DNA from: a virus
Lineage: Duplodnaviria > Caudoviricetes
Virus record (IMG/VR): IMGVR_UViG_3300021979_000003
Location: 175,091-239,090 of that record
DNA length: 64,000 nt
Strand: one strand, 5' to 3'
Under the pieces are notes generated by a model. The model made no database searches, had not been told where the DNA came from, and saw only the letters and a list, made by a program, of their open reading frames with translations. The position numbers and the translations under genes were made by a program. Shown in pieces: positions 56,313-63,201 of this stretch. Numbering within the stretch: the first letter of the stretch is position 1; each line of letters begins with the position of its first letter.

Positions 56313-56449
56313 ACTTTATTTCTCCTATTTTGATGAATATATTTATTCTTTAAATTTTTTCATTAAAGGGGTTGTTTTTTAAAATTAGATCGCCTATAAT
56401 AGTTACATAAGGTTGAGAAACAAATTAAACACTAAACTAGGTGATTATT

Positions 56450-56746
56450 ATGACTAACGCAACTACTACTCAAGCACAAGTAACTCGTCCTGTAGGTCGT
56501 CCGCTGTCCAAGCGCGGTCGTAGCGCAAAACGCGCCGTTGAGAAATTCGTCAGCGAAACTCAGGGTAAATTCACTGCCGCTGATGTACGTCGCGTAGCCA
56601 AGCAGTCCAAGGTTACTGTACGTAACCGCCTGAACGCTCTGGTTGCTGCGGGAGTCATCGAGAAGGTCGATAGTGTTCCGGTGCAGAAGGCAGGCAAGGC
56701 CACTCGTGGTCGTCCTCTGGCGGTTTACAAGCGTAAGGATGCATAA
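56450..56746 (+). CDS. Basic winged-helix DNA-binding protein with AT-hook-like GRP motifs (early)
   Basis: RPVGRP; FTAADV..SKVTVRNRLNALVAAGVIEK; TRGRP; sigma70-like promoter upstream. Confidence 0.8.
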   Translation: MTNATTTQAQVTRPVGRPLSKRGRSAKRAVEKFVSETQGKFTAADVRRVAKQSKVTVRNRLNALVAAGVIEKVDSVPVQKAGKATRGRPLAVYKRKDA

Positions 56747-56752
56747 GCATCC

Positions 56753-57481
56753 TTATATAAACCAAAAGCCATTAAACGGGAATATGATTATTTCATATCC
56801 CGTTTTTACGCTTTCAAAATCTTCTATTTTTTCCATTCCTTTGATATAGTTAATTGTATCATCATAATACTTTTGAAATACATCTTTAACTACTTCTTCA
56901 CTGTTACCAATAACACCCTCGTCTTCTACATTAGATGCGAATCGTAGATAGAATACATAAACGCTTTCAACGAAATTGTCATAGTCTATCTGGTCAGCAT
57001 TTTTCTCTAAGAATCTAAGAAAATTCTGCATATGTTTTATTTGTGGACCCTTACCGCTTTCAGACTCATACTGTATTAAGTGATACATAATAGCCCTAGA
57101 CTGTCTTTTGTATTCAGTATCCACTGTGAAGTCCTGAACATTAGGATTGTAATAAGCTTCATACCCATCGTTTGGTACTAGTCGGAATATCGTATCACCA
57201 AACAAGTCTGCTTGCTGCTTGTCTTTAGATGTAAATATTCCACTACGTATATAAACATCCATCATTTCCTTTGATAGATGGTTCGTTAAATTGTGTAAAA
57301 CTATAAATGTATCAACAGGCTTTCTTGACTTAGGTCTGTACTTATGAAAGCCTTCGTAGCTTAGTATACCTTCATAATTTGTTCGTACTCCAACAAACAA
57401 TTTACCGGCACCATATTCGTTATAGTATTCGGTTTCTTGGTAAGATCGGTCTTTGTTGTCAACGACTTCATTTATCTTCAT
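56753..57481 (-). CDS. ART-like paralog 1 (MKINEVV start)
   Basis: RKPVDT..HN..RSGIF..YEIII; AAGGA RBS before ATG 57481. Confidence 0.65.
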   Translation of the reverse strand: MKINEVVDNKDRSYQETEYYNEYGAGKLFVGVRTNYEGILSYEGFHKYRPKSRKPVDTFIVLHNLTNHLSKEMMDVYIRSGIFTSKDKQQADLFGDTIFRLVPNDGYEAYYNPNVQDFTVDTEYKRQSRAIMYHLIQYESESGKGPQIKHMQNFLRFLEKNADQIDYDNFVESVYVFYLRFASNVEDEGVIGNSEEVVKDVFQKYYDDTINYIKGMEKIEDFESVKTGYEIIIFPFNGFWFI

Positions 57482-57542
57482 TTTAATATCCTTACTGTTG
57501 TATATATTTAGAGTAATAAATACAATACTATGGAGGTAATAT

Positions 57543-57902
57543 ATGTCAAAGATACTTGAAGGCAATATAATTAAAAAGGCCAATACCAAGCAAAAGTATA
57601 CCAAAGAACAGATACAACAACTAAGAAAATGTAGTGCAGCAAATGAAAATGGGCATTACTATTTCATGGAACACTTTGGTCATCTAAAGCATACATCTAA
57701 AGGTAGGGTTTTGTTTAAGCCGTTTGACTATCAGAAAAGATTGATTGATAATTATCATAATTATCGCTTTAGTATCAATATGTTAGGTAGACAAATGGGC
57801 AAATGTGTTACTGGTGATACTGAAATGAAAATTAGAAATAAAAAGACTGGTGAAGAAAAACAAATTTCTTTTGAAGACTTTTTAGAAATGGTAAAAAAAT
57901 AA
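57543..57902 (+). CDS. terL: Terminase large subunit N-terminal fragment fused to a split-intein N-half
   Basis: T4 gp17-like N-terminus to Walker A RQMGK, then intein block A CVTGDT and a stop after 32 aa. Confidence 0.92.
   Translation: MSKILEGNIIKKANTKQKYTKEQIQQLRKCSAANENGHYYFMEHFGHLKHTSKGRVLFKPFDYQKRLIDNYHNYRFSINMLGRQMGKCVTGDTEMKIRNKKTGEEKQISFEDFLEMVKK
57804..57899 (+). mobile_element. Split intein N-fragment (32 aa, atypically short)
   Basis: CVTGDTEMKIRNKKTGEEKQISFEDFLEMVKK inserted after the Walker A Lys. Confidence 0.9.
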
Positions 57903-57920
57903 GAGGGGAATTCCCCTCTT
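57901..57920. terminator. Terminator after the terL N-fragment
   Basis: AAGAGGGG-AATT-CCCCTCTT. Confidence 0.75.
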
Positions 57921-57959
57921 ACTGTTCTTTGGTGAACCCCCTTACTGTTCTTTGGTGAA
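57913..57959. repeat. Near-perfect 23-bp tandem duplication
   Basis: CTTACTGTTCTTTGGTGAA at 57918 and 57941. Confidence 0.9.
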
Positions 57960-58178
57960 ATCGAAAGCAGCACCGTACTCATCATAGCATACGAGAGTTT
58001 TGGTATACATTCGACCGTCTTTATATGCCAGCGTAGGTTGAGGTGTCATGCCTTGTTGTTGACACATATGCTTCAGAGCATGATATTGACCATAAGGCAT
58101 AGGACCAGTGGTTCCACAACCAGTGAGCATAGCAGTAACAAGTACAACCATAATAGCAGCGTGTTTGATACGGAACAT
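57942..58178 (-). CDS. Lipoprotein
   Basis: Signal peptide with lipobox LTG-C. Confidence 0.8.
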   Translation of the reverse strand: MFRIKHAAIMVVLVTAMLTGCGTTGPMPYGQYHALKHMCQQQGMTPQPTLAYKDGRMYTKTLVCYDEYGAAFDFTKEQ

Positions 58179-58214: not shown

Positions 58215-59126
58215 TTACTTAAATGAAGTCAAATCATTTTTGTAAAGCATTGTAATGACATCATTCTCACTAAAGTCGTGACCTTTGTCTACCAAGTAGC
58301 GCAGTATGTCAGCGGTATTAACCAATACAAAACGATCAGCGTGAATCATAAGTTCATTGTACTTAACGGTAGTGATGTCAATATCATCATGTTCATGTAC
58401 CAGCTTGTATTTTGCGGCTTCAGAACGAATGTATTTTTCTGTCATACTTAGTGTTTTATCAAATAGGCTCTTATACTTTTCTTTTGATGCAAGAAACTTA
58501 GCATCGTTCCCTAATATTTGTTTTGCTGAAGTTTCAAATACACCTATAAATGTGTCTAGGTTAGGAAAGTCTTTTTGCTTTAACCACGATTCGCGTGGTA
58601 GTAGGTTGAACACATAGTTTGGAACCAAGTCTGCCCTTACCTTTGCATGATCGTCACTTAAATCAACATAGTCTTCTATGAAATCAACATACATTTTTTC
58701 AATTTCACCACTATTTAAATAGTCTCTAACCAAAATGTACATGTCGTTAACCGTATCAGAAGTTGCTATCTTATAGCCATCGAATGGAAACACCACGTAT
58801 GAAGAAGAACTAAAGTCTTTATAGTACGTAAACAAAGCATTACTTCTGAATCTTTCACCTAATTCTTTTTGTAAGGCATCGTCCATTATATTATGAAAAT
58901 ATTCTGGGGTATCTGTAGGTTTTCTGTCTTGTTTGTTCTTTACTACTTTAAATATACCTTCAGGAAGGTTAGATGCGCTGTGTCTAAACTTTTGTGACAC
59001 ATCCTTACTGTAAAAGTTTTTATATACGTCTCGGCAATGTTCTCGAAGTATCTTTGATAGCTTTTCAACTTCTGAGACTACATTAGTAGACTCTTCGTCT
59101 TCTTTTAAAATATCTCTGATTTTCAT
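58215..59126 (-). CDS. ART-like paralog 2 (MKIRDILKE start)
   Basis: RKPTDT..HN..RSNALF..NELMI; GAGGA RBS before ATG 59126. Confidence 0.65.
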   Translation of the reverse strand: MKIRDILKEDEESTNVVSEVEKLSKILREHCRDVYKNFYSKDVSQKFRHSASNLPEGIFKVVKNKQDRKPTDTPEYFHNIMDDALQKELGERFRSNALFTYYKDFSSSSYVVFPFDGYKIATSDTVNDMYILVRDYLNSGEIEKMYVDFIEDYVDLSDDHAKVRADLVPNYVFNLLPRESWLKQKDFPNLDTFIGVFETSAKQILGNDAKFLASKEKYKSLFDKTLSMTEKYIRSEAAKYKLVHEHDDIDITTVKYNELMIHADRFVLVNTADILRYLVDKGHDFSENDVITMLYKNDLTSFK

Positions 59127-59214
59127 TATCAATCCTCAATCTTATTTTATAGTAATATTTATTGATGTGTCGGTAGTGGTATGTTATAATGAAATTAAAA
59201 GTGGAGGGTAAAAA

Positions 59215-61453: not shown

Positions 61454-62497
61454 ATGAAAACCGGATTTGTCGTAGGAAAATTTGCACCACTTACAACCGG
61501 CCACATCAATTTCATCAACCAAGCGTCCACACAGTGTGATAAGCTTTTGGTTCTGTTGTCCTATGATGAACGCTGGCGACAAAAGCAAACGCCTTACATG
61601 GCTAACAAGCTCACACTCAAAAACCGTATTAAGTGGCTCAAAGAGACATACAATGGGTTTGATCACATTATTGTAGACTATGTTGATGAATCAGAAATTC
61701 CAGAATACCCGAATGGATGGGATGCATACACTAAGCTTGTTGAAGAGAAGCTTGAAAAGCATTTTGGTTCTAAGAGTGCGGACTATGTTTTTTCATCCGA
61801 AGTCGAGTACGATGAAGGATTTAAAACATATTTCCCCAAATCTGAACACGTACTGATTGATCCAGATCGTGAGAACTTTCCCATTTCAGCAACCATGGTT
61901 CGTGGTGAACTATTTAAGCATTGGGATTATCTACCTTCTGCCGTTCGTAAAGAATTTGTATATAAGGTAGCCATTATTGGCACTGAAAGTACAGGTAAAA
62001 CAACACTTACCAAGTACCTTGCCAAAATGTTTGCAACCTCATGGGTTGAGGAATATGGCCGTGTGTACTGTGAAGAAAATCTTTTTGGTGATGAAACTCT
62101 CCTATCAAATGAGGATTATGAAAAGATTGTGTTTCGCCATAAAGAGAATGAAGAAGAGGCGGCACGTACTGCTAATCGAATTCTTCTATCTGATACCAAT
62201 GCATTTATCACAGGATTCTATCAGTATCTTTATGAAGGTGAAATAAGTCCTATCGTTAGTTCTATGATTAGTAGTGAATACTATGATCTTGTAATCTACT
62301 TAGATAATGATGTACCATGGATTGATGACGGTCTTCGTATTCATGGAACCAATGAGCTACGTAAGAAGACTAAGGACACTTTGGAATACCTCATGGAGCT
62401 TTATAATATTGACCATGTTCGTATTTCTGGTTCTTATAAAGAGCGTCTTAACAAGACGTATACACTTATCAAAAAATCAATGGAGAATGTACGATGA
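61454..62497 (+). CDS. nadR: NadR-type NMN adenylyltransferase / ribosylnicotinamide kinase (no HTH)
   Basis: GKFAPLTTGH, ISATMVR, GTESTGKT, EEYGR and DGLR. Confidence 0.93.
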   Translation: MKTGFVVGKFAPLTTGHINFINQASTQCDKLLVLLSYDERWRQKQTPYMANKLTLKNRIKWLKETYNGFDHIIVDYVDESEIPEYPNGWDAYTKLVEEKLEKHFGSKSADYVFSSEVEYDEGFKTYFPKSEHVLIDPDRENFPISATMVRGELFKHWDYLPSAVRKEFVYKVAIIGTESTGKTTLTKYLAKMFATSWVEEYGRVYCEENLFGDETLLSNEDYEKIVFRHKENEEEAARTANRILLSDTNAFITGFYQYLYEGEISPIVSSMISSEYYDLVIYLDNDVPWIDDGLRIHGTNELRKKTKDTLEYLMELYNIDHVRISGSYKERLNKTYTLIKKSMENVR

Positions 62498-63201
62498 GTA
62501 CACTAAGCTTTTTGATTGATGACTTTAAAGGATGGGATAAGTTTGACTATAGTTGGCTTGCTCTCGCCAGTGCAGCAATCATTGGTATAACACTAATGAT
62601 GGGTGGTTCATACATTTCTATTATTAGTGCGTTGGCTAATGTAGTCTGTGTGATACTGGTGGCGCAAGGTAAGCTATCGAACTATGTGTGGGGAACTGTA
62701 GGTGTCGTAACTTATGCATATCTTGCATTTACTTGGGGATACTACGGTGAAACATTTCTCAATGCTTTATATTATTTACCAATGCAATTCATTGGTTTTT
62801 ATTTTTGGTACAAGCACAAAGGTAATGTTGATAATACATCGTCTGAATCTGTACTGATTACAAGCTTGAGTCGGTTTCAAAAAGTCTTAGGGGTTGTTCT
62901 AGTACCTATTCTAGTTGTCTTGCTTTCATACGTCTTGATGCTGATGGGAGGCAAGCTGGTTATTCTCGACGCTACTACTACTGTGTTGTCAGTAGTTGCA
63001 ATGATGCTTATGGCTGCACGAATGAAAGAACAGTGGTTACTGTGGATTATTGTCAACGTGATCAGTATCTATATGTGGTTTCAGTCTTTTATGTTGGGAA
63101 ACCCTGATGGGATCGCCACCTTACTCATGTGGTGTGTATTCTTACTAAACGCTGTATATGGTGCTTGGAAGTGGTTTAAGCCGCTCTCGCGCCAAGCTTA
63201 G
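62494..63201 (+). CDS. pnuC: Nicotinamide riboside transporter PnuC
   Basis: Multi-TM; GKLSNY, YYLPMQ, LDATTT and EQWLLWI. Confidence 0.93.
   Translation: MSTLSFLIDDFKGWDKFDYSWLALASAAIIGITLMMGGSYISIISALANVVCVILVAQGKLSNYVWGTVGVVTYAYLAFTWGYYGETFLNALYYLPMQFIGFYFWYKHKGNVDNTSSESVLITSLSRFQKVLGVVLVPILVVLLSYVLMLMGGKLVILDATTTVLSVVAMMLMAARMKEQWLLWIIVNVISIYMWFQSFMLGNPDGIATLLMWCVFLLNAVYGAWKWFKPLSRQA

Follow-up and report, generated by a model that had tools for sequence, protein, structure and literature searches.

The window (the whole stretch of DNA that was analyzed, 64,000 nucleotides) is the final 64 kb of a 239,090-bp linear IMG/VR record, here called G000, with a CheckV completeness of 54%. Near its end lies a short gene in which the N-terminal part of a phage terminase large subunit (TerL) is followed directly by an intein N-fragment (IntN). 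The features of the locus are as follows.

57543..57902, plus strand: gene for TerL piece 1 (N-extein plus IntN-a), 119 aa plus stop
57543..57803, plus strand: N-extein, TerL residues 1-87, with Walker A GRQMGK as its last motif (gp17 alignment)
57804..57899, plus strand: IntN-a, a 32-aa intein N-fragment with Cys1, block A, and a short helix (VAP7 alignment)
57515..57522, plus strand: T4-late-type promoter-like motif AATAAATA, ending 20 nt before the ATG
57532..57536, plus strand: ribosome-binding site GGAGG, 6 nt before the ATG, read from the sequence
57900..57923, no strand assigned: palindromic G+C-rich hairpin over the stop codon, terminator-like on both strands

Residues 10-89 of the N piece align with residues 93-168 of T4 gp17, up to SRQLGK|T (PDB 3ezk/2o0h, E 1e-4), the protein matches the TerL PHROGs (phrog_36964, E 1.9e-12), and its N-extein is collinear with residues 1-94 of the intact TerLs of PA5oct and two IMG/VR jumbo phages. 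From Cys88 on, similarity to TerL ends, and approximately 32 residues align with the start of the contiguous intein in the TerL of Vibrio phage VAP7, with Cys at position 1 directly after the N-extein and block A following. The gp17, PHROG, and VAP7 alignments thus agree with the initial annotation, which had read the ORF, from its letters alone, as a gp17-like N-terminus up to the Walker A lysine plus 32 intein residues. The Walker A Thr is absent from the N piece and is provided by a separately encoded middle piece (GK|T).

The same annotation had described a stand-alone transcription unit, and the gene does possess its own promoter motif, a GGAGG that is also kept in a relative (L154, JGI 3300048879), and a hairpin at its stop. 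The hairpin has an 11-bp stem and a T-run on the minus strand and a 9-bp stem on the plus strand, and with its T-run it is stronger as a terminator for the convergent minus-strand gene at 57942..58178 than for the N piece. No reading frame continues past the N-piece stop, where the convergent opposite-strand gene comes next. No nuclease or endonuclease domain families were found among the neighbors of the N piece, in accord with the earlier statement that no endonuclease gene lies nearby, and neither the 64-kb window nor the 239-kb contig yielded a TerL C-part, an IntC-terminase ORF (IntC, intein C-fragment), or a homing endonuclease.

Just past the hairpin, a 19-nt direct repeat, CTTACTGTTCTTTGGTGAA, is present in two copies (window 57918-57936 and 57941-57959), with the second copy constituting the 3' terminus of the convergent 78-aa gene. 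Only one copy is present in relative L154, and the pair in the window is therefore a small tandem duplication. The minus-strand genes at 56753-57482 and 58215-59132, which bracket the N piece and the lipoprotein-like 78-aa gene, are paralogs of one another (both phrog_15932). Further along the window, at 61454-63201 on the plus strand, genes for a NadR-like NMN adenylyltransferase/kinase and a PnuC-type NMN transporter constitute a phage-encoded NAD salvage module; they were assigned from PF01467/PF13521 and PF04973 matches on identical genes in L150 and L191.

Conservation of the N piece

At least five independent assemblies contain the 119-aa protein unchanged and with its stop in the same place (Logan SRR7168051 and SRR7168054; ENA ERZ23499214, ERZ23499121, and ERZ23499197). 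Across ten related clusters of 119-131 aa, every stop falls 30-44 residues past the invariant Cys. Residues Cys88, R98, K100, T102, G103, and F113 are invariant in 11 of 11 homologs, and Walker A and Cys1 are invariant across 11 N-piece clusters. Comparison with an 82%-identical relative, in which the N piece is also a stand-alone gene and the gene order is that of the window, gave a dN/dS of 0.07, indicating purifying selection. These values bear on whether the ORF, which is short, isolated, flanked by genes of unknown function, and without a partner in the window or the contig, might be a decaying relic of an intein-invaded terL, with a separate intact terminase doing the work. The low dN/dS and the invariance of Walker A and Cys1 argue against a relic, and no intact terL was found either in the approximately 457 kb of the joined genome described below or in the complete genome of Salicola phage SCTP-2 (MF360958, 440 kb), the nearest cultured phage. 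We regard a relic as very improbable.

In close relatives (L154, JGI 3300048879; L155, SRR35531911) the N-piece gene contains a 293-nt group I intron (L154:1404-1696; RF00028, 86 bits, E 7e-22). The intron separates codons R83 and Q84, four codons upstream of where the intein is inserted, and gene callers cut the relative's intron-split gene to 83 aa; over residues 1-83 the intron-bearing relative has 95% amino acid identity with the N piece of the window. The window carries the intron-less allele, with the intron site corresponding to 57791|57792.

Partner pieces and the joined genome

The window holds no partner piece because it ends the 239-kb contig, which is about half of the genome. On G000 itself, no second TerL part was detected with PF03237, PF17289, phrog_2, or phrog_36964, or by tblastn with the TerL pieces of SCTP-2 and Vibrio phage vB_VmeM-32 as queries; the only matches to the TerL queries were intein-to-intein (the PhoH, helicase, and portal inteins) and not to TerL. 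Gene-by-gene comparison indicated that most of what SCTP-2 encodes at 241-430 kb is missing from G000, as are all the genes found beside the middle piece in relatives.

The family of middle pieces is large: approximately 40 clusters match the SCTP-2 protein from end to end. An N-piece fragment with 95% identity (P0263) and a middle piece (P0126) come from a common JGI sample and SRA run, and P0274, which belongs to the cluster of P0126, sits on IMGVR_UViG_3300021979_000004 (G006, 217,982 bp). Other middle-piece candidates (P0125, P0127, P0132, P0250, and P0248) belong to other phages or samples. Five large IMG/VR contigs that were checked have a terL that is intact or locally fractured rather than dispersed, and matches to a 576-aa IntC-TerL query (L020) came mostly from a large TerL family that is unrelated.

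Over their final 149 bp, G000 and G006 are 100% identical when one of the two is read as its reverse complement, and the joined genome comprises 456,923 bp. An independently assembled ENA scaffold of 351,510 bp (TREM19-1_SAMN09060589 scaffold_1) crosses the G000/G006 junction with 100% identity on the G006 side and 99.5% on the G000 side. Both the 119-aa N piece and P0274 are present on this scaffold in identical form, on opposite strands and separated by 84.4 kb. The same layout recurs on a 401-kb TARA scaffold, where the distance between the N and middle pieces is 83 kb and the N piece bears one substitution. On these sequence matches the linkage of G000 and G006 is established for the phage population rather than for one molecule, because the two are separate assemblies and the bridging scaffold is 99.5% rather than 100% identical. 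Near the end of G000, a stretch of approximately 390 bp (window 56356-56739; G000 231446-231829) carries a 101-aa HTH-like gene (phrog_25395) and recurs with 82-83% identity in G006, at 56.9-57.3 kb and at 217.36-217.62 kb; the latter copy adjoins the junction, which is probably why the assembly broke there. G000 contains the N piece only, and G006 contains the middle and C pieces and no N piece.

G006:C1:138629-139546, strand opposite to the N piece: middle piece (P0274), 297-305 aa, 84.4 kb from the N piece
G006:C1:71573-73663, strand not given: C piece, approximately 694 aa, 150.3 kb from the N piece and 65.0 kb from the middle piece

The data are metagenomic, and the contig breaks 6 kb past the gene beside repeated sequence, so that an assembly artifact, either a mis-join or a chimera of two phages, could in principle account for the stop at 57900 or for the distance between the pieces. 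The ORF and its stop are, however, alike in the at least five independent assemblies, which come from different pipelines; the stand-alone gene and gene order recur in the 82% relative and in cultured SCTP-2; and the 351-kb and 401-kb scaffolds, assembled independently, each hold both the N and the middle piece. An artifact of either kind is highly unlikely, and, as judged from these comparisons, the N piece is a maintained gene, neither a relic nor an assembly error.

The initial annotation had expected the partner of the N piece to be encoded far away, as an ORF with an intein C-fragment ending in HN or SN ahead of the terminase remainder. The middle piece lies 84.4 kb downstream, past the contig end on the opposite strand, and consists, in order, of IntC-a (CADDH block B, GIVSHN end), Thr+1, an 87-aa extein ending SISLLY, and a second N-fragment, IntN-b; it is thus the matching C-fragment for IntN-a on the same scaffold (P0274, CADDH ... 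GIVSHN|T), and an end of the predicted type, SHN followed by Thr+1, was found on G006. The C piece consists of IntC-b (approximately 110 aa, ending SSN), Cys+1, and the remaining ATPase and nuclease domain, in which Terminase_6C (PF17289) scores 25.2 bits against the Pfam cut-off of 22.6, and a 224-aa contiguous intein interrupts its extein. TerL is therefore divided not into two halves, as had been proposed, but among three genes with two split inteins and one cis intein. The observations named beforehand as ones that could overturn the assignment were looked for: no intact terL turned up in approximately 457 kb, the partners were located, and several assemblies show the same stop.

Virtual splicing at GK|C, SHN|T, LLY|C, SSN|C, TLS|C, and GSN|T gave exteins of 87 + 87 + 24 + 336 = 534 aa. 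The 534-aa virtual TerL, which would comprise a complete ATPase and RNaseH-like nuclease, aligns without gaps at all three junctions with intact TerLs, at 50-53% identity (PA5oct, 531 aa, and two IMG/VR jumbo phages, 527 aa each), and it regains Walker A (GK-T), Walker B (LLY-CDE), and the TLS-TGG motif. That three pieces sum exactly to one TerL is a further argument against decay. The catalytic residues of all three inteins are present (Cys1, CADDH, SHN|T, SSN|C, and GSN|T), and together these features are strong evidence, at the level of sequence, that mature TerL would be made by two trans-splicing reactions and one cis-splicing reaction.

Beyond the first approximately 35 residues of IntN-b, the middle piece has a conserved C-terminal tail of approximately 58 aa (...IKTTIENI...; region G006:C1:139260-139543, P0274 residues 211-305; SCTP-2 L010:1780-2061). 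The tail is found in the middle pieces of 297-305 aa, including that of this phage, and is missing from variants of 245-261 aa; the shorter variants end 35-40 residues after Cys1 of IntN-b.

Split inteins, expression, and proposed assembly of TerL

Both split inteins are atypically split, with a short IntN (approximately 32-36 aa) and a long IntC (110-123 aa) that includes block B. IntN-a, at 32 aa, and IntC-a, at 115-123 aa including block B, fit an S2-type split; the S2 site, after the first helix, has been described for the AceL and GOS TerL inteins (PMC13014065), and the unusual split terminase intein was first noted by Dassa et al. 2009 (PMC2677866). As a short query against PDB, IntN-a gave nothing meaningful. 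Over its full length, IntC-a matches VidaL (6vgv, E 5e-6) and CatC, which represents the consensus of the characterized AceL/GOS-TerL inteins (6dsl_B, E 2e-5, 27.9 bits, residues 20-126 against 15-113 of 118), although its similarity to PDB entries is modest, at approximately 28-30 bits; CatC is the best match of the SCTP-2 IntC-a. IntC-b matches CatC over its full length, Cys+1 included, with E 5.5e-8 and 36 bits versus 28 for IntC-a. The kinship with the AceL and GOS inteins that had been suggested for the N piece is therefore upheld in part: the S2-type split and the CatC match at 2e-5 agree with it, but CatC is closer to intein b (5.5e-8).

The [T/A]ATAAATA motif was found 41 times in the 80 nt upstream (sense) of 274 contig ORFs versus approximately 3 expected; it is approximately 12-fold enriched just upstream of genes in the 239-kb contig, and 58 of 100 ATAAATA sites fall in 80-nt upstream regions. 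TATAAATA occurs approximately 25-26 nt before the start of the middle piece (the Met that matches the 297-aa family) and approximately 25 nt before the start of the C piece, and the late-promoter motif is also found upstream of all three SCTP-2 pieces. From these motifs, the three TerL pieces look like co-expressed late genes. Independent transcription of the loci had been put forward as a possible timing checkpoint, a proposal that is unsupported because all three pieces carry the same late-promoter motif.

The ORF is, with high probability, a functional late gene for the first of three TerL pieces of an uncultured, approximately 457-kb T4-like jumbo phage related to SCTP-2. This reading draws on directly observed gene structures, linkage in one genome, collinearity of the virtual product, conservation, and promoter motifs. 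All three pieces would be produced late in infection; IntN-a would dock IntC-a, and IntN-b would dock IntC-b, to give two complete HINT folds; and two trans-splicing reactions and one cis-splicing reaction would yield the 534-aa TerL with Walker A (GK|T) and Walker B (LLY|CDE) restored. We infer the docking, the splicing, and the orthogonality of the two split inteins.

The two halves of a split intein bind each other tightly, and the pieces could instead associate through their intein halves without being spliced, TerL then being a non-covalent complex of three chains; splicing is here deduced rather than observed, and the extra tail of the middle piece after IntN-b would be compatible with such a complex. 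Against it, Cys1, the block B His, the terminal Asn, and the Thr or Cys at +1 are all conserved, and unspliced HINT domains would interrupt the Walker A and Walker B motifs of the ATPase. The characterized AceL-, GOS-, and Cat-TerL and VidaL inteins, moreover, do splice (PMC11766414, PMC13014065). A non-covalent complex is unlikely, and trans-splicing of the three pieces is the reading we retain.

If TerL is made from three genes spread over 150 kb, both split inteins must be orthogonal in vivo. IntN-a and IntN-b are identical at 10 of 32 positions, so that mis-pairing is conceivable and orthogonality is assumed. In close relatives the N piece would also need RNA splicing of the group I intron, and we place at even chances the full picture of two paralogous split inteins, mutually orthogonal in vivo, and, with the intron of the relatives, one RNA-splicing and three protein-splicing events. 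TerL is essential, and every virion would therefore depend on two trans-splicing reactions and one cis-splicing reaction. If the two split inteins are indeed orthogonal, the phage would supply a natural pair with short IntN fragments for joining three protein fragments in one pot; split inteins of this short-IntN type are prized in protein semisynthesis and labeling. The Walker A intein, with Cys1/Thr+1 and a 32-aa IntN, is an allele distinct from AceL/GOS/Cat; metagenomes contain dozens of its natural variants, and the protein that carries it presumably also contains a second, orthogonal system as its partner. Annotators should not class a 119-aa 'terminase fragment' of this kind as a pseudogene, and completeness tools may miss terL in genomes with dispersed pieces.

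Comparison with known fragmented genes

In SCTP-2, the N piece is gene 534 at 429 kb, a stand-alone gene of 130 aa that is 56% identical including IntN-a; the middle piece is a 297-aa ORF (gene 267) at 257 kb with IntC, an 87-aa extein, and a second IntN; and the C piece is a 694-aa ORF at 215.4-217.5 kb with the second IntC, the remainder of TerL, and a contiguous third intein. The two phages thus have in common a three-piece dispersed TerL, two split sites, and a middle piece beside gp13, whereas host and habitat differ and protein identity is only approximately 55%. IntC-b of SCTP-2 ends Ser-Gln before Cys+1 (L008:3238-3243, minus strand), where this phage has Asn (SSN|C). GenBank labels SCTP-2 genes 534 and 267 'terminase large subunit', and our literature search found no description of the three-piece SCTP-2 arrangement. 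In Vibrio phage vB_VmeM-32, the N and C pieces of TerL are approximately 79 kb apart, and the split goes unmentioned in the vB_VmeM-32 paper. SCTP-2 and vB_VmeM-32 were isolated as viable phages, and a working terminase must therefore arise from dispersed pieces. Through SCTP-2, and for the two-piece form through vB_VmeM-32, the lineage can be cultivated, and it offers a natural test of how far a working gene can be fragmented and scattered.

The inteins share with AceL, GOS, and their consensus Cat (PDB 6dsl) a TerL host protein, Cys1, an IntN of approximately 25-37 aa with block A and the first helix only, and an IntC that exceeds 100 aa and includes blocks B, F, and G. Unlike Cat, intein a is inserted at Walker A with Thr+1, and the CatC end ...SH(A)|CE aligns with SSN|CD of intein b, a comparison of insertion sites that rests on the Cat construct. 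By this alignment, the AceL/GOS/Cat inteins look like alleles of the Walker B site; intein a, with its Thr+1, is a relative of theirs that occupies the Walker A site. At that site, the VAP7 TerL, a single ORF of 756 aa, has a contiguous homologous intein with the same insertion point (GK|C ... SHN|T), and contiguous Walker A-site TerL inteins, spliced in cis, are likewise present in Dickeya Limestone-like phages and Atu_ph07 (Ackermannviridae and others). The break of the N piece falls at the approximately 35-aa linker of VAP7, after which VAP7 continues with blocks B, F, and G; the split form is without this linker region of the contiguous VAP7-type intein.

An essential enzyme encoded in split-intein-tagged pieces is a feature shared with fractured genes (PMC2677866) and with the split PolB of MIJ3 (PMC6892783). 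In Dassa et al. 2009 (PMC2677866), the Lake Gatun terminase locus was one of those whose halves flank a homing-endonuclease gene; in this phage, unlike the Lake Gatun locus, the halves are 84 kb apart, with no nearby endonuclease gene and with two such inteins per protein. The N half-endonuclease-C half arrangement of the fractured genes of Dassa is missing, and the partner is 84.4 kb off on the other strand. The same genome does contain a classic fractured gene outside the window (G000:C1:70834-74095, minus strand), for a UvsW-like helicase, whose Walker A motif carries one contiguous intein and whose DExH box carries a canonical split intein, with a 316-aa endonuclease-like ORF separating the halves. 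Further inteins are found in PhoH (G000:C1:110424-112271, plus strand; Ala1 intein, LAGLIDADG-like domain, insertion GTGK|T) and in a gp20-like portal protein (G000:C1:123846-126146, plus strand; GGE|C ... KN|S).

Atypically split TerL inteins, fractured phage genes, and split-intein genes with distant halves are already known. In the literature searched, there is apparently no account of an essential TerL divided among three genes that span 150 kb, of a single protein with two paralogous short-IntN split inteins as well as a cis intein, or of the conservation of this layout from a cultured halophage to marine metagenomes. The split inteins of cyanobacterial DnaE and of Nanoarchaeum equitans PolB (PDB 5oxx) are encoded at distant loci of one genome and are trans-spliced. 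Those systems differ from the phage TerL in that they belong to cellular genomes, have the canonical split with a long IntN and a short IntC, and comprise only two pieces.
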